A stretch of 64,000 nt of DNA. Source: Escherichia coli 042. GTDB lineage: Bacteria > Pseudomonadota > Gammaproteobacteria > Enterobacterales > Enterobacteriaceae. Shown in pieces: positions 53,814 to 62,279 of the stretch. The translations under genes were made by a program, and so were the position numbers. Location of the stretch: assembly GCF_000027125.1 (NCBI RefSeq), contig NC_017627.1; one strand, 5' to 3'. The notes under the pieces were generated by a model. That model had not been told where the DNA came from. It did not search any database and saw nothing but the letters and a program-made list of their open reading frames with translations. Each line of letters begins with the position of its first letter. Within the stretch, counting starts at the first letter, position 1.

Positions 53814-53821
53814 AATTCCTC

Positions 53822-54330
53822 CTGTATCTGATGTTTTCAGCCCCCATCATCTGTTGAGTTTCGGGAGCCGCGGTTTTGACGTTTTGCGGGGACCTGCCTT
53901 TTGTTCCCTCCGGTATTCACCATCACCTGTTTGAGAACCTTCGCCGCAAGGGGCATCACTGCCACGGCCTGACGCACCTGTCCTGGGCAGAACGCAAAAT
54001 TTTTTACCGGGTTTTAGGTAAAAAATTTTGTGGTCTGTTCATTTACCCTGGACAGTCAGTGCGGCAGGTTGTGGCTGTATCAGCCCCCGGCGACAGGGGC
54101 TTAAACAGGTGAATGGCACCGGACACAACAACGGGCAGGGACCCGCCGCAACGACGTGAAGCGCGGTTTGCGAAACGGCGTTGCGCCTTACATCCCGGCG
54201 GCCTTTTGCCGGGATGCCAGGAGCGCAGGCCACGGCGCGACAGAGGCGGCGCGACCGGAACGGTCGCTGCAAGCCCGGGGTTTCGCGTCAGGGATGGAAG
54301 CCCGCCAGGGGGACGCCCGGAAAAGACACT
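53822..54330 (-). promoter_or_regulatory. Frpo/ssi-like leading-region repeat, copy 1
   Basis: Shares long near-identical blocks with 59401-59860 and 62797-63250; internal palindrome caaaattttttaccgggttttaggtaaaaaattttg. Confidence 0.6.
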
Positions 54331-55342: not shown

Positions 55343-56062
55343 TCACGCCGCCTCCCGGAGTTTGTTCGGCACCATCCATCGCTCCATCTCACGGACGGCA
55401 TGACCGGCCTCCCTTGCCGCCATACCAGCCTCTGCGATGACCTGCCAGAACGGCATATCCTGCCACTGCCAGCGTTCCATTCCGGCCAGTGACGGGAAAC
55501 GCTCGCCCCACTGCCAGAACAGGGTTTCCAGGTCATGCTCTGCCACCCGGTCACTCCAGCGTGCATGCCAGCTTCCAACTGTTTCCGGCGAATGGAATGC
55601 CAGTTCGACTTCAGCCTGAGCGACCAGCGCCTGGTACGCACGGGCTTTCTGCTCTGCCTCCCGTGCCTGCTGGCGGCTGTACTTCTGCATGACCAGCGCG
55701 GATTTATGGCGACTGCGCTCCCTGACGCGGAACCGCACCGACGGAAACAACCGCTCTGCTGCATCACCGGGAAGGGGAAGGAGGCAGACCTCGCCCTGTG
55801 TTTCAATCAGCACATCGACGGCATACAGCCACTGAAGACGGCTGCCGTGCAGTTCTTCTGCGGTCAGGGATGGCATGAAAAATCGCAGGTCAGACAGCGA
55901 AATCCTGCGGCTTCCGTTCAGACAGCGGAAAAACGCTCCCGCATACGGATATTCCGCCAGCGTGTTTCCCTGATGGCGGCGTTTTTCCGTCTCCGCCACC
56001 GCCCGCCATGCGGCCTGTTGCTCTGCGCTGAGGGGAACCAGTGTCTGTGATCGTGCGCTCAT
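55343..56062 (-). CDS. psiA: plasmid SOS inhibition protein PsiA
   Basis: 239 aa [32 protein letters not shown].. Confidence 0.9.
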
Positions 56063-56493
56063 GCCTGACCTCCTTCCGCCATCAGGATATGAATGATGTC
56101 GTTAACGCTGTACCCCTGCGCATCCAGTGACGCCGCCAGTGCCAGTGAATGGCTGACAGCTTCCGGTGCAAACCGCCGCTGCACCTGAACCACCGCAAAC
56201 GGCTCACCACCGGCATTCACCAGAACCAGCACCCAGACCTGAGAGACATCGCCCGGTGAACATAACGCCAGGTGAAAACATTCGTGGGCAGGCGTGAAAC
56301 GGACCTGGACGGGGAAAAATCCACCAAACTCGCTGCCGTACTCGCCGTTCATCGTCCAGTTGTCCGGCGCATCCAGTTCCCGCATCACGGCGTGTGTCAG
56401 CTCACGACGTTCATCACTTCCGGCAGCCCGGATATCTTCATATTCCTGTGCGCTCATGGTCTGTAATACATTCAGGGTCAGTTCAGTTTTCAT
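56059..56493 (-). CDS. psiB: plasmid SOS inhibition protein PsiB
   Basis: [40 protein letters not shown]..; overlaps the psiA start. Confidence 0.9.
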
Positions 56494-56547: not shown

Positions 56548-58506
56548 TCAGGCGGCATCAGCCAGGTTATCGGTGCGTTCAGTGGCATCTGTCTGTGGAT
56601 GTGGTGCACACATCCAGCCTGGAACCCAGCGGTTGTCTTTCATATTGTGCTCTGCATGTTCAGCCGCATCACCTTTCTTCATCTTCTCCGCGTCCCGTGC
56701 GGCACCGGACAGCCCTGCCTCATTCAGGGCTGCGATAATCTGCGGCTTTTTCAGGTGTCCGAAGAAGTTTGCTTTTGTCGGCTGCCACCAGTCACGCATG
56801 TGAAAGCCGATGGCGCTTTCCAGCGAGTCAAGCGGACTGCGTGACGTGTGACCACACTCGCGGGTCTGAACGCCGTGGATGCTGCACGCGGTACAGAAGC
56901 TGAGCAGGGATAACAGCACCTCCTGGCTGAGTGACAGGAACGTCGTCATATCCCGTTCCCATCCTTCCGGCAGCAGGGCAGCAAAACGAGAGTGTTCTGC
57001 CATCAGCGCCATGAATGCGGCACCTTCCTTCCCCGACGGTGCATCGCTGGTCAGCGCATAATGCTCACATTCCAGGCGAATTCTGGCGGGACTACTATGC
57101 GCTTTGCTGCCAAACACATTCAGGCAGAGCGTCCATGCCAGCAGTGTCAGGGATTTGTCCGGTTGCTGCATCAGTGCCGCCTGGACTGCCAGCGTGCGTT
57201 CGGAAGACATTTTCGTCAGCAGTGGCAGACTGATTTCCTCCACTGACGCTTTTTCCTGCACCTGTTCCGTGCGGTCAGCGTCGTCAGCCGCATCATCCTC
57301 ACTGCGTAACTGCACACCACGCTGGACACATACGTTTCCATAACGCCAGGACACCACCACTCCACCTCCGGCACGCATCTCCGGCGTCCACGCTCTGACC
57401 TTCGCCATGCAGCGCATCAGCTTCATTTCTGCTTCCAGCAGGTCAGATTCCTCACACTGATTTTCCAGCGCGTCGTAACGCGTCATCAGTTCGTTCAGAC
57501 GTTCTTCTTCCGCCTCCGTCAGCACCGCTTCCGGCTCCGGCAGACAGCGGTATGTTCCGGCATCCTCACGGCACTCACCGACAGGCTCCATGCGTCCGGC
57601 GCACCATCCCCAGCCTTCGGCTTCCCGAAGGAACTCTGCAACAGCCTGGAGTTTTTCCAGCAGGGCGGCATCGAGCGCAACACAGTCCACATAGCCACCC
57701 TCGTCGTCGCTGAACAAATCAGTGCGCAGTTCATCTGGCGAGAAGGCATCAGCCCCCACAAAGCGGAATTTACTGTTCCCCGCCACCGCCACTTCACTTT
57801 CGGTCACCAGACGACGAATGGTCTGTACTTCCGGTTTACCGCCCCATCCCGACTGGCAGGCGGCTTCAAACACCTGCACCTGACGCGCGGTGTCGTTCTC
57901 CAGCGCCAGCGCCTGACAGTGCTCTGTGGTGATGCGGTCTTCTGCCAGCGCATCGAGGATGACAGGCGCAAGGTCTGCCAGTTTCAGCATTCGCTGAACG
58001 TGGCGGGGCGAATAGCCCAGCAAATCACCGATTTGTGCAGGCGTTTTGCCTTCCTGCGCCATCGCACGGAATCCGGCAATCTGTTCGGCAGGGTGCATAT
58101 CCCGACGATGACCGTTTTCAGTCATTGATGCAGCCGTCGCCAGCTCCTGCGGAATAACCTTCACGCGTACAGGCCAGTCAGCCGGAATGATGCCACGCTC
58201 TGCCAGCATGTTGAGTGCTGCCAGTCGGCGACCACCTGCGGCGACACCGTAACGGTCACCAGGCAGGGTATGCACGACCAGATTCTGCAACAGGCCAACG
58301 CCCTTAATGGACTCCGCCAGTTCGCTGACGGACTCTGCGGAATACGGCACAGTGCGCACATTCAGCGGTGATTTAATCAGTGAAGCCAGCGGCACACTCA
58401 CTTCCTCCGTCTGCGCCAGCAGGGCAGACAGGACTGTTTCCTGCGTTTTTGCATATTTACGGCTTGCTTTGCGGGTGGTTTCTGGTTCACACTTCGTTAC
58501 AGGCAT
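56548..58506 (-). CDS. ParB-like nuclease-domain protein of the leading region
   Basis: About 650 aa from MPVTKCEPETT..; ParB/Srx-type N-terminus, acidic repeats mid-protein, basic C-terminus. Confidence 0.75.
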   Translation of the reverse strand: MPVTKCEPETTRKASRKYAKTQETVLSALLAQTEEVSVPLASLIKSPLNVRTVPYSAESVSELAESIKGVGLLQNLVVHTLPGDRYGVAAGGRRLAALNMLAERGIIPADWPVRVKVIPQELATAASMTENGHRRDMHPAEQIAGFRAMAQEGKTPAQIGDLLGYSPRHVQRMLKLADLAPVILDALAEDRITTEHCQALALENDTARQVQVFEAACQSGWGGKPEVQTIRRLVTESEVAVAGNSKFRFVGADAFSPDELRTDLFSDDEGGYVDCVALDAALLEKLQAVAEFLREAEGWGWCAGRMEPVGECREDAGTYRCLPEPEAVLTEAEEERLNELMTRYDALENQCEESDLLEAEMKLMRCMAKVRAWTPEMRAGGGVVVSWRYGNVCVQRGVQLRSEDDAADDADRTEQVQEKASVEEISLPLLTKMSSERTLAVQAALMQQPDKSLTLLAWTLCLNVFGSKAHSSPARIRLECEHYALTSDAPSGKEGAAFMALMAEHSRFAALLPEGWERDMTTFLSLSQEVLLSLLSFCTACSIHGVQTRECGHTSRSPLDSLESAIGFHMRDWWQPTKANFFGHLKKPQIIAALNEAGLSGAARDAEKMKKGDAAEHAEHNMKDNRWVPGWMCAPHPQTDATERTDNLADAA

Positions 58507-58564
58507 AATCATCCCCTTATAATTGCTTATGTCCTGCCGGACGTTCGCGCGTCCGGCACCTCTC

Positions 58565-58798
58565 TTACTTAAGAATGCCGAAATTCCGGATGACATGGTT
58601 CATCCAGTACCCGGCACCGTCCTCAAAATTCCAGGTACGCCAGACCAGGCCACTGTTATTGCGGACAACCAGGCGAAAATGCGTTCCCTGATCATCCTCG
58701 ATAAAGACATTCCGGTACTGTGCGGCAACGGCTTCAGCCTGTTCGCGGGTAAAGGAGCCGTCAGGCAGCCCCTGAAATATTCTGAAATATTCGCTCAT
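58565..58798 (-). CDS. small leading-region protein (YubL-like, position-based)
   Basis: About 77 aa from [14 protein letters not shown]..; between ssb and the ParB-like gene. Confidence 0.55.
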
Positions 58799-58853: not shown

Positions 58854-59381
58854 TCAGAACGGAATGTCGTCATCGAAGTCATACGCGGGTTCAGACGGCT
58901 GCTGAGGCTCGGGCTGCGCGGCCTTACGTCCACGGCCTTTCGTTTTCGCGCCACCTTTTTTCAGTTCCGGCTGTGATTCCGGCTGAGGCTGACCGCTGAA
59001 CTGTTGCGCCTCTTCCGGCTGAGTCTGAGTACCTGCGGCACGTCCCAGCATCTGCATGGTGCCCGTGGTCTTAACAAGAATTTCGGTGACGTAACGGGTG
59101 ATACCGTTATCCTCCCAGCTACGGGTGCGAAGCTGACCTTCGATGTAGACCTGCGCGCCCTTGCGCAGATACTCACCAGCCACTTCCGCGAGCTTGCCGA
59201 ACAGCACCACGCGATGCCATTCTGTCTGCTCCCGCATCTCCCCCGTCTGTTTGTCACGCCAGCTTTCTGACGTGGCCACCTGCAGGTTTGCCACTGCGCC
59301 CCCGTTGGGGATGTAACGGATTTCCGGATCTTTTCCCAGACGACCGACAAGAATGACCTTGTTAATGCCACGAACTGCCAT
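58854..59381 (-). CDS. ssb: plasmid single-stranded DNA-binding protein
   Basis: [44 protein letters not shown].. OB fold, acidic tail ..[16 protein letters not shown] 7 nt upstream. Confidence 0.95.
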
Positions 59382-59400
59382 GATGTGTCTCCTTCTGTTG

Positions 59401-60023
59401 ATGTTTTCAGCCCCCATCATCTGTTGAGTTTCGGGAGCCGCGGTTTTGACGTTTTGCGGGGACCTGCCTTTTGTTCCCTCCGGTATTCACCATCACCTGT
59501 TTGAGAACCTTCGCCGCAAGGGGCATCACTGCCACGGCCTGACGCACCTGTCCTGGGCAGAACGCAAAATTTTTTACCGGGTTTTGGGTAAAAAATTTTG
59601 TGGGCTGTTCATTTACCCTGGACAGTCAGTGCGGCAGGTTGTGGCTGTATCAGCCCCCGGCGACAGGGGCTTAAACAGGTGAATGGCACCGGACAGAACA
59701 ACGGGCAGGGACCCGCCGCAACGACGTGAAGCGCGGTTTGCGAAACGGCGTTGCGCCTTACATCCTGGCGGCCTTTTGCCGGGATGCCGGGAGCGCAGGC
59801 CACGGCGCGACAGAGGCGGCGCGACCGGAACGGTCGCTGCAAGCCCGGGGTTTTCACGCATCGGACCGTAGCGACAGCCCGAAACCGCGCCAGCGGGTTC
59901 GGCGGAGACTGGCGGGTGCGCCAGCAGCTGCCTGTCGGAGTCGGGCCTGACGACCGGATGCCGCCAGGCAGCCGGGAGCCGAAGGTGCGCCCGGCAGACA
60001 GGACAACACTGCAGTAGTCAGAA

Positions 60024-60036: not shown

Positions 60037-60307
<271 letters not shown>

Positions 60308-60308
<1 letters not shown>

Positions 60309-60871
60309 CAGGCACGCAAACGAATAATCATCGTCGGGACATCGGTATAAGCAAACGTGCCGCGCGGCAGCTCCTCGCGGATGTCAGAAAACGGTAACAG
60401 CTTCTCCTGCTGGCGCGGCCCGTTCAGACAGACGGCAACCAGCACGCCCCCCGGACGCAACAGGGAAAAAGCCCGCAGGATATGCCGGATATCCTGCCCG
60501 TGGATGAACGGCGGATTCATAATGATCCGGCTGTAATACTGCACCGGCTGCCATTCCATGAAGTCGCCACACTGTACCCTGACACCGTTAAAATTTTCCC
60601 GCAGATACCGGACCAGCCCGCTGTTAATCTCCACCGCATCACACATGGCCTCCGGCGCGGTATCCCGAATCGCCCGCAGTATGGCCCCGGTGCCGGCAGA
60701 GGGTTCCAGAATGTGATCACGGTTGCTGATTTCCGCCAGCGTCACCAGGCGATCACAGACCGGGGCAGGACTCACAAAAAGCTGAGATTCAGCCCGGATT
60801 TCAGCAACCGGCGCGGCGTTATCCAGCCTTGCGCGCATCAGCCGGATACGTTCTCTTAACTGACTGTGCAT
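60308..60871 (-). CDS. orphan SAM-dependent DNA methyltransferase, probable N6-adenine type
   Basis: 187 aa; motif I ..LEPSAGTGAI.., motif IV ..IIMNPPF..; no adjacent restriction gene in the window. Confidence 0.75.
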
Positions 60872-60917: not shown

Positions 60918-62279
60918 TTATTTCTGTGGGATTTCCGTGATTTTCATGTCGGTAATATACACATTCACCAGGCGGAAATTATTGTCCATTGTGCGGCGGT
61001 AGCGGTATGCCCCGTGGTCTTCTGTCTCTGCCACACTGCGCACGGCCTTACAGTCCCGGGGCAGGGCGGCCCACTGCGCCTTTGTCATTTCCCGGAAACC
61101 TTCCCCCGGATAGTTGACTACCGGCGGACGCTTCGCGGCCTGACTGGCGACGGCAGCCTCTTCTGCCGATGGTGCTTTGTAGTCCGTGATGCGATCGGGC
61201 GTCACTTTCATCGTGCCGCTGTACCCGAGAAAACTGTAATTTGGCGTTGTGACTGAACTCACCGCCCCGTTGCTTTTGTTCACGCGGATGATGGTCAGCC
61301 ACTCGCCCCGGCTGAAAACCTGTCCGCCCGGCTCAAAATCCTGTGTCCGGGTAACCACGCCGCCGCTTTCGTCCAGCATGGCACGCTCATAGATCAGGCG
61401 GTTCTGATAGTGGTTAACCCAGCGTTGCTGATGCTGAATCTGCCGTTCATGACAGCGGATCGCAATTTCGCGGGCCTGCTCCGTGGTGATGATGTCATCA
61501 TCCAGGGCCGACCATAACGATCGACTTCCTTCATACTGGCTTTTTTCTGCCGGGCGCGGATACCTGTCCAGCGGGAAACAGGCGCTGATATGGTCATGAC
61601 TGCTGATGAGTTTTGCCATATTCAGATCCAGCGATTCAGCCCGCCACATCGTCAGATATTTCTGCGACTGTGCGATGGTCTTTTCCGCCTTGCGCAAATC
61701 AGCTTCGATTTTTTTGATACGACGCCAGCGAACGTCCGGACGTTCTTTATACTTCGCGTGAAGCAGTGCCGACCGCGCCCGCTCTTCCCAGTATTCCGCA
61801 CGTTCAAAGAGCATCACAGCACGTTTCATACCGTTTTCAATACGCTGTGCATCACGACGGGCGCGGCGTTCGCTGTGATGCCCCACAAGAATGGGCTGAC
61901 CGGGCGGGATCATCGCGGCCAGTCTTTCCACTTCATCAAGTGCCTGTGCGGATTCACTGGCCCGCTTTCCGCTGTATCCGGTAAACCGCTCCGCCCGTGC
62001 TTCCTGACGTTCAGCGAGCGTGCTGTCTTCATCCTCAATCTCTCCGGCAAGTGAGAGGAGCACGTCTTCCCGGCCCGGTGTCCAGGCTGGCGCGACAAAC
62101 AGCGCCTGTTTGGGTGCCCAGCGAAAACCGGCATCATGCACTTTTTTATACGTCTCCGGGTCAAGACGTGACGCGGCATACAGGCGCAGTTTGTTGTCAT
62201 CCGGTGAGTAGGTCGCGCGGTACATCTGCACAGGGCTGGCGGCTTCCGGGGCGGTCATGGTGATTGCTGCTAATGTCAT
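60918..62279 (-). CDS. leading-region protein of unknown function (453 aa)
   Basis: Long ORF, basic/acidic helical middle region (..RRARRDAQRIENGMKRAVMLFERAEYWEERARSALLHAKYKERPDVRWRRIKKIEADLRKAEK..); family not assignable by eye. Confidence 0.6.
   Translation of the reverse strand: MTLAAITMTAPEAASPVQMYRATYSPDDNKLRLYAASRLDPETYKKVHDAGFRWAPKQALFVAPAWTPGREDVLLSLAGEIEDEDSTLAERQEARAERFTGYSGKRASESAQALDEVERLAAMIPPGQPILVGHHSERRARRDAQRIENGMKRAVMLFERAEYWEERARSALLHAKYKERPDVRWRRIKKIEADLRKAEKTIAQSQKYLTMWRAESLDLNMAKLISSHDHISACFPLDRYPRPAEKSQYEGSRSLWSALDDDIITTEQAREIAIRCHERQIQHQQRWVNHYQNRLIYERAMLDESGGVVTRTQDFEPGGQVFSRGEWLTIIRVNKSNGAVSSVTTPNYSFLGYSGTMKVTPDRITDYKAPSAEEAAVASQAAKRPPVVNYPGEGFREMTKAQWAALPRDCKAVRSVAETEDHGAYRYRRTMDNNFRLVNVYITDMKITEIPQK

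Follow-up and report, generated by a model that had tools for sequence, protein, structure and literature searches.

HerB, a ParB-like protein encoded in the leading region of an F-like plasmid from Escherichia coli 042

The gene considered here, herB (also yfjB or parB2), lies at positions 56548 to 58506 on the minus strand of a 64,000-nucleotide stretch of Escherichia coli 042 DNA (contig NC_017627.1; the whole stretch is called the window below), and its closest described relatives are YfjB of the F plasmid (WP_000117173.1) and ParB2 of pED208. The name HerB comes from a July 2026 preprint (PMC13370423) in which the F protein was characterized as a 146-kDa homodimer by size-exclusion chromatography with multi-angle light scattering (SEC-MALS) and cryo-electron microscopy (cryo-EM), with a V-shaped core and dimerization mediated by its fourth domain, D4. 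A crystal structure of the first two domains, D1-D2, holds CTPgammaS (from cytidine triphosphate, CTP) and Mg, and cryo-EM of D4 revealed a domain-swapped dimer described as without homology to characterized proteins. Nucleoid-associated foci of F HerB need R94, E130, the residues of the helix-turn-helix (HTH), and D4, in which subdomain 577-625 bears a conserved basic patch. Chromatin immunoprecipitation (ChIP) identified 156 chromosomal regions, with no motif and none on F, and 866 genes were differentially expressed with HerB. Deletion of herB from F left transfer frequency and plasmid positioning unchanged and made the acquisition cost ~10% higher, and the mutant lost a multi-day transfer competition; ectopic HerB without the plasmid reproduced the localization and transcriptome effects. 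The same preprint reports 429 HerB homologs in PLSDB and INPHARED.

YfjB fused to superfolder green fluorescent protein (sfGFP) is visible in transconjugants before the plasmid is double-stranded and reaches its peak within minutes; donors show no detectable signal (PMC9849209). Dependence on Frpo2 has been demonstrated for fusions to ssb and yfjA, the two genes directly 5' of yfjB (PMC9849209), and recipients show enrichment of the F transcripts that Frpo1 and Frpo2 control (PMC12672017). In pED208, a ParB2-Cre fusion crosses the type IV secretion system (T4SS), giving ~1e-3 recombinants per donor, the highest end-point of six maintenance-protein fusions, and deletion of parB2 affects neither transfer, pilus production, translocation of other substrates, nor SOS induction (PMC8406263). 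A Nature 2024 paper on leading regions does not discuss herB, and a January 2026 preprint on leading-region DNA conversion uses ParB only as a parS/ParB imaging tool and does not deal with herB.

Judged by its sequence, the window gene is an intact ortholog of F yfjB (parB2 in pED208, herB in the 2026 preprint), and the product is probably an early-expressed, CTP-dependent, clamp-like dimer which loads on the recipient chromosome, shifts host transcription, and eases establishment. All 652 residues align with F YfjB with zero gaps, and 597/652 (92%) are identical. The four-domain layout and functional residues are those of F YfjB/HerB (PMC13370423) and pED208 ParB2 (PMC8406263), and the gene occupies the same slot as in F, between yfjA (DUF905) and psiB and downstream of Frpo2 and ssb. 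The F allele differs from that of the window by 55 substitutions, in the ribosome-binding site, and in the upstream intergenic sequence. Nine of the substitutions fall in the flexible N-terminal 23 amino acids (aa), 10 in D1-D2, and 36 in D3-D4. At the codon level, herB differs between the window and F by 95 synonymous and 55 non-synonymous changes, and the gene is evidently under purifying selection.

The longest open reading frame (ORF) here, 56548..58596 on the minus strand, encodes at most 682 aa, and its Met31 corresponds to the start at 58506, which gives a protein of 652 aa. This start is the second ATG of ...AAGGGGATGATTATG... and has a Shine-Dalgarno-like AAGGGG six bases 5' (AAGGGG-N6). 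The RefSeq start and the 1959-nt length of herB are identical in the pO86A1 and F annotations. The gene and the parts of its product are as follows.

56548..58506, minus strand: herB / yfjB / parB2 coding sequence, 652 aa plus stop, from the ORF list and the F alignment
58507..58520, minus strand: herB ribosome-binding region AAGGGGATGATT, before the ATG at 58506; the F equivalent is GGAGG
58099..58506, minus strand: D1, aa 1-136, a flexible N-terminal extension plus the ParB N-terminal CTP-binding domain (Pfam ParB_N; domain limits taken from PMC13370423)
57802..58098, minus strand: D2, aa 137-235, a predicted DNA-binding, ParB-type HTH (HTH_ParB; R168, R172, K175)
57256..57795, minus strand: D3, aa 238-417, an acidic mixed alpha/beta domain (charge profile)
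56599..57255, minus strand: D4, aa 418-636, helical, responsible in F HerB for dimerization and nucleoid association (W627 and P629 invariant)
56551..56598, minus strand: C-terminal tail, aa 637-652, ...TDATERTDNLADAA-COOH, with an -AA end (…TDNLADAA) and predicted to be disordered

The exact window protein is already public on 72 contigs, and its 90%-identity cluster has 15,292 members and carries the name 'ParB/RepB/Spo0J family partition protein'. In PLSDB, at least 5000 plasmid records contain herB, with 80% or more of the gene covered in 4978 of them. The public copies, the spread in PLSDB, and the synonymous excess identify herB as a conserved, selected gene rather than a chance ORF.

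Similarity to ParB, Spo0J, Noc, and KorB, in sequence and in fold, is confined to the first ~200 aa. Pfam detected ParB_N at aa 41-131 (1.3e-7) and HTH_ParB at aa 136-222 (2.1e-8), with no Pfam match past residue 222. A PDB sequence search matched aa 26-220 to Spo0J, ParB, and Noc (Spo0J 1vz0 at 3e-17), and a Foldseek search of the full model against PDB returned the fold of Noc, ParB, and KorB (7nfu, 5e-10; KorB 8qa9, 5e-7, ~210 residues). In D1, Box II reads G91-G-R-R94-L-A-A97 (GGRRLAA) and Box III reads M128-T-E130-N131 (MTEN). The residues shown to be functional in F (G91-A97, R94, E130, R168, R172, and K175) are all found at the same positions in the window protein.

RefSeq and NCBI name the product a partition ParB/RepB/Spo0J protein, which would bind a plasmid centromere and segregate the plasmid with a ParA ATPase. 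The N-terminal 200 aa do align with Spo0J and ParB, and the generic NCBIfam model TIGR00180 parB_part passes its cut-off (64.3 vs 58.45 bits). It is the only NCBIfam model to do so, however; all NCBIfam matches lie within the first ~200 residues, and the full-length partition models score far below their cut-offs (RepB 19.9/201.5, PRK13832 42/640, PRTRC ParB 71/279). The PHROG family phrog_7783 ('unknown function') spans aa 37-644 with an E-value of 5.7e-253. Such a whole-protein match means that near-identical copies are filed among virus proteins, and these probably come from phage-plasmids or misclassified plasmid contigs.

By the rule of PMC13370423, under which each of D1-D4 is at least 80% covered, the window protein falls within the HerB family, with 652/652 residues aligned to F YfjB. 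All the testable defining features of the HerB/YfjB/ParB2 family are present, and on these features the protein is a member. To assess the extent of the family, 1.84 billion cluster representatives were searched by phmmer, with only D3-D4 as the query. Matches were found in 2159 clusters (50% identity) at E ≤ 1e-3 and in 1070 at E ≤ 1e-10. Full-length matches are 600-730 aa long and their D3-D4 starts at residue 200-270, from which it follows that the ParB head and D3-D4 travel together, nearly always. One distant member (36% identity in D3-D4) has the same leading-region location on a different F-type plasmid, where its neighbors are DUF932, SLT, traM, traY, and traA. Only seven phage records matched, mostly from cyanophages, which is consistent with PMC13370423.

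An alignment of 85 full-length family representatives (27-92% identity) contains six invariant residues, G91, R94, N131, Q209, W627, and P629, and E130 is present in 84/85. The HTH contact residues are looser, with R168 in 27/85, R172 or K in 67/85, and K175 or R in 77/85. ParB_N was detected in only 28 of 56 members scanned with Pfam; because G91 and R94 are invariant in all 85, this reflects weak Pfam sensitivity and not a missing head.

A more divergent HerB-family protein of 697 aa (P0101; ~31% identity in D3-D4) was observed at L003 8001-10094, on an integrase-bearing element. The operon that holds its gene is long, runs on one strand, and has a divergent cI/Cro-like HTH pair next to it; RVT_1, DUF5131, and ASCH genes follow downstream, and the surroundings look like a prophage early operon. 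The HerB family may be a general 'entry-phase' module of mobile elements, beyond plasmids.

The C-terminal ~415 aa, D3-D4, matched no Pfam family in the Pfam scan and no fold relative in PDB by Foldseek, the full model giving ParB-fold matches only. A BFVD search for D3-D4 relatives gave one match, a 622-aa phage 'ParB/Sulfiredoxin' protein of the same architecture. D3 has a net charge of -21 and an isoelectric point (pI) of 4.26, with acidic peaks at aa 256-285 and 331-360. It is the least conserved of the four domains (mean identity 28%), yet its charge is kept; across the alignment of 85 the median is -19 and the range -31 to +1. In the AlphaFold2 (AF2) monomer model, D3 folds as an alpha/beta domain and does not form an extended array resembling DNA. 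Instead of being a passive linker, the conserved acidic D3 may provide a surface for regulation or act as a decoy.

The first-pass annotation of this DNA had described central acidic repeats and a basic tail. The acidity is borne out by D3, but the repeats are not; Tandem Repeats Finder (TRF) found none in the herB gene, self-BLASTP of the protein returned the identity match only, and there were no meaningful repeated 4-mers. Nor is the tail basic, as the last 53 aa have a net charge of -3, and the only basic stretch is a short KMKK/LKK patch at aa 585-611, within the D4 subdomain 577-625 that bears the conserved basic patch of PMC13370423.

The window belongs to an F-like conjugative plasmid, with traJ, traM, an SLT transglycosylase, and the tra operon below ~52 kb; the latter includes ORFs of TraD and TraI size. 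The leading region extends upward from oriT, and the oriT-proximal traM, SLT, and DUF932 genes are on the expected side. On the minus strand, a repeated element of ~450 nt is followed, with short gaps, by ssb, yfjA (DUF905), herB, psiB, psiA, and hok, and the gene order ssb-yfjA-herB-psiB-psiA matches that of F and pO86A1, with the single-strand promoter in front of ssb in F too. The features around herB are as follows.

59421..59870, plus strand: Frpo2-like single-strand promoter element 5' of ssb, one of three copies in the window
58854..59384, minus strand: ssb (plasmid SSB), the first gene of the operon (Pfam SSB 9e-38; start set by the F alignment)
58565..58798, minus strand: yfjA (DUF905; Pfam DUF905 1e-33; 234-nt annotation as in pO86A1 and F)
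58536..58557, minus strand: 8-bp GC hairpin GCCGGACG-N6-CGTCCGGC, between the yfjA stop and the herB ribosome-binding site; F shares the stem but has a different loop
56511..56537, minus strand: GC-rich hairpin CCGCCCCG-CCGGAGA-CGGGGCGG, between the herB stop and the psiB ribosome-binding site; identical in F and pO86A1
56059..56493, minus strand: psiB (Pfam PsiB 7e-63)
55343..56062, minus strand: psiA, overlapping the psiB stop (Pfam PsiA 2e-38)

The element 5' of ssb is 94% identical to the Frpo2 region of F by sequence alignment, and its assignment as Frpo rests on this identity to the characterized F element. As single-stranded DNA (ssDNA), it would fold into a long hairpin of -137.5 kcal/mol (vs -87 ± 5 for shuffles, z = -10.4). 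An Frpo-driven block with ssb, psiB, and psiA had been proposed from the sequence alone, and the gene order and the 94% Frpo2 identity confirm it by homology. The plus strand is the template strand of the ssb-yfjA-herB-psiB-psiA operon. From F biology, we infer that it would also be the transferred strand, moving 5'→3' from oriT with the leading region first. Both hairpins flanking herB lack a T-run after them on the coding strand; they may serve mRNA stability or the coupling of translation, or may be structures of the ssDNA.

Under the proposed mechanism, the plus strand would enter the recipient during conjugation, leading region first, and the Frpo2-like hairpin 5' of ssb would form a promoter on the single strand. 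The genes ssb-yfjA-herB-psiB-psiA would be transcribed from it before the complementary strand is made. The 71.5-kDa HerB would dimerize via the C-terminal D4, bind CTP in the ParB-type D1 pocket (GGRRLAA, E130/N131), and contact DNA via the D2 HTH and D4. Clamp-like HerB complexes would then assemble at many sites on the host chromosome and not on the plasmid, the expression of hundreds of host genes would change, and the short-term growth cost of plasmid acquisition would fall. To this scheme the present analysis contributes orthology, domain layout, conservation of functional residues, operon context, and Frpo homology and fold. The early transient production, CTPgammaS crystal, D4 dimer, foci, ChIP, transcriptome, and fitness effects come from the literature on the F protein. 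We infer that the window allele would behave as F HerB does, with true CTP-gated sliding and a route leading from binding to transcription.

Several points weigh against this mechanism. The functional model comes from one preprint which is not yet peer-reviewed (PMC13370423), and most of its omics data were obtained with an ectopic C-terminal sfGFP fusion. That study found neither a binding motif nor a loader, and CTP hydrolysis and sliding are not directly demonstrated there for F HerB. Only 71/156 of its ChIP peaks coincide with regulated operons, which implies that a large share of the expression changes may be indirect effects. Neither transfer frequency (PMC13370423, PMC8406263) nor SOS induction (PMC8406263) responds to deletion. 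The presence of R168 in just 27/85 representatives implies that DNA recognition may differ between family members. Finally, the functional data are all from F, and 36 of the 55 residues at which the window allele differs are in D3-D4.

With regard to the other claims of the first-pass annotation, a protein of roughly 650 aa at 56548-58506 agrees with the 652-aa minus-strand ORF, its Shine-Dalgarno sequence, and the RefSeq start, and the ParB/Srx-like N-terminus was recovered by the domain search as ParB_N and HTH_ParB with matches to Spo0J, Noc, and KorB. Early production finds support in the F ortholog, which is early and transient in transconjugants (PMC9849209), and a role in establishment rather than partition is in line with the F deletion, which spares transfer and positioning and raises the acquisition cost by ~10% (PMC13370423). 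The term nuclease domain is not supported, being a former Pfam name of PF02195; what is conserved is the GxxR/ENxxR of the CTP pocket, and the F ortholog was crystallized with CTPgammaS. The statement that the role is not obvious is out of date after PMC13370423. The herB gene was already known and its function recently reported, and spotting it from the letters is a correct re-identification.

Three alternative explanations are all weaker than that of a chromosomal clamp. The main role of HerB could be that of a T4SS substrate shipped from the donor with the DNA, which would act on the plasmid as it arrives or regulate plasmid genes in the manner of KorB, and not that of a host reprogrammer synthesized in the recipient. 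Translocation of pED208 ParB2-Cre (~1e-3 recombinants/donor) speaks for shipment (PMC8406263), and the disordered acidic -AA tail could be a secretion signal. KorB is a ParB-fold CTP clamp regulating plasmid genes (PMC11790492), and the herB model matches its structure (8qa9, 5e-7). However, donors contain no detectable F protein and each transconjugant synthesizes it anew (PMC9849209), there is no ChIP enrichment on F (PMC13370423), and deletion leaves transfer, pilus production, other-substrate translocation, and SOS induction unaltered (PMC8406263). Plasmid-free ectopic expression furthermore reproduces the effects on localization and transcriptome (PMC13370423), and we consider this explanation very unlikely.

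Also very unlikely, in our judgment, is an anti-defense effector in either of two forms taken together: a ParB/Srx-fold nuclease or nucleoside triphosphatase (NTPase) acting on defense nucleic acids, or a DNA-mimic decoy whose acidic D3 would titrate out nucleoid proteins (H-NS, for example) or the enzymes of restriction systems. The idea fits the neighborhood, as this leading region also carries anti-restriction, methyltransferase, SOS-inhibition, and ssb genes, and leading regions in general are enriched in anti-defense genes (PMC11541004). The charge of D3 (-21, family median -19) would suit a decoy, and D3 is without an assigned function in PMC13370423. On the other hand, a PADLOC profile search gave only matches of E ~0.005, on the ParB motif, and no nuclease activity or motif is documented; the pocket of the F protein binds CTPgammaS (PMC13370423). 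The D3 model is folded alpha/beta rather than elongated and DNA-like, the phenotypes were obtained with ectopic HerB in E. coli K-12 under no defense challenge (PMC13370423), and transfer frequency is unchanged on deletion (PMC8406263, PMC13370423).

The partition ParB reading is already largely refuted and in our view extremely improbable, since HerB has neither an adjacent parA gene (its neighbors are DUF905 and psiB) nor a ParB C-terminal dimerization domain (its last 415 aa bear no relation to those of ParB proteins) and is therefore not a canonical ParABS ParB, the canonical chromosomal parS was not found in the 64-kb window with up to 3 mismatches (plasmid centromeres vary), the F deletion leaves plasmid positioning unchanged with no ChIP enrichment on F (PMC13370423), and the protein is undetectable in established donors (PMC9849209, PMC13370423), which is incompatible with a maintenance function.

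The C-terminal tail of HerB, which is identical to that of F, has a predicted local distance difference test (pLDDT) score of about 47-51 in the AF2 monomer model. An -AA C-terminus occurs in 26/85 of the aligned representatives, vs ~3% expected from composition, and in 16/21 of the closest ones; another 9/85 end in -AE. The -AA ends come after a disordered acidic stretch rich in D/N/T. ClpX reportedly recognizes ssrA-type tags by their …LAA-COOH end, and the -AA end of HerB resembles such a signal. It is conceivable, if doubtful, that the tail is an ssrA-like ClpXP/ClpAP degron timing the reprogramming pulse, or the T4SS signal of ParB2. The published in vivo HerB work was all done with C-terminal sfGFP fusions, which would mask a signal in the tail, and native HerB could thus be much shorter-lived or better translocated than reported. 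The -AA end is not discussed in PMC13370423; its enrichment may be a new point and is a lead rather than a result.

Two further Frpo-type copies were noted in the window. Copy A (53820-54290, ~53.8 kb) precedes a 98-aa ORF and a DUF932 gene, and the third copy (62760-63300, ~62.8 kb) lies 5' of a small ORF at 62331-62561. The operon of the third copy also holds a DUF3560 gene (60918-62279) and an orphan class I S-adenosylmethionine (SAM) methyltransferase gene (60308-60871), and the arrangement suggests that the DUF3560/methyltransferase operon is also driven from ssDNA. F has been described with Frpo1 and Frpo2 only (Couturier et al. 2023). The interval from the methyltransferase gene to the Frpo2-like element contains a hexanucleotide tandem repeat that looks perfect, GAGCAG x14.3 (60045-60130, 97% matches); it generates poly-Leu and Ala-Pro/Ala-Thr pseudo-ORFs, and its length may vary among plasmids.

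herB is carried on thousands of F-like resistance and virulence plasmids, and the annotation 'partition protein' that it bears everywhere is misleading. The work on F suggests that a plasmid factor transiently takes over host transcription for establishment, which makes it a possible target to slow plasmid spread. In the window, herB is intact, keeps all its motifs, and stands in its native Frpo2 operon.

Beyond its orthologs, HerB shares features with several ParB-fold proteins. PRTRC ParB (TIGR03734) and PRK13832 are likewise long (555-578 aa) ParB-like proteins of mobile elements, and PRTRC ParB gave the best NCBIfam match (6.4e-20); that match covers profile positions 6-163 only, with 71 bits vs a cut-off of 279, and the C-terminal halves are unrelated. 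Chromosomal ParB/Spo0J and Noc have the same GxxR and ENxxR nucleotide-binding boxes and are the best matches to aa 26-220. HerB is more than twice as long and, unlike them, is without a ParA partner, Noc-binding sites (NBS), a ParB C-terminal domain, or the membrane-targeting helix of Noc, and the window holds no canonical parS.

KorB of RK2 (PMC11790492), which represses transcription as a CTP-dependent sliding clamp, is plasmid-encoded like HerB, combines the ParB CTPase fold with an HTH, and serves gene regulation over segregation. KorB acts at defined operators on its own plasmid with KorA/TrbA and IncC (ParA) as partners and has a small C-terminal dimerization domain, whereas HerB goes to the host chromosome, has no known motif or partner, and carries the unrelated 415-aa D3-D4. 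There are no korA or incC neighbors by herB and there is no plasmid binding in F, and the likeness is at the fold level only.

VirB of Shigella (PMC10770331) and BisD of ICEclc (PMC12409273) are, like HerB, ParB-like CTP-dependent clamps of mobile elements, and both affect transcription at long range. Each is loaded at a specific site of its own element (virS and the BisD site, respectively), activates the genes of that element, and is without D3-D4; HerB differs in targeting the recipient chromosome, and only in the first generations after entry. In its working principle, HerB is grouped with KorB, VirB, BisD, and Noc, as ParB-fold CTP switches repurposed from segregation.

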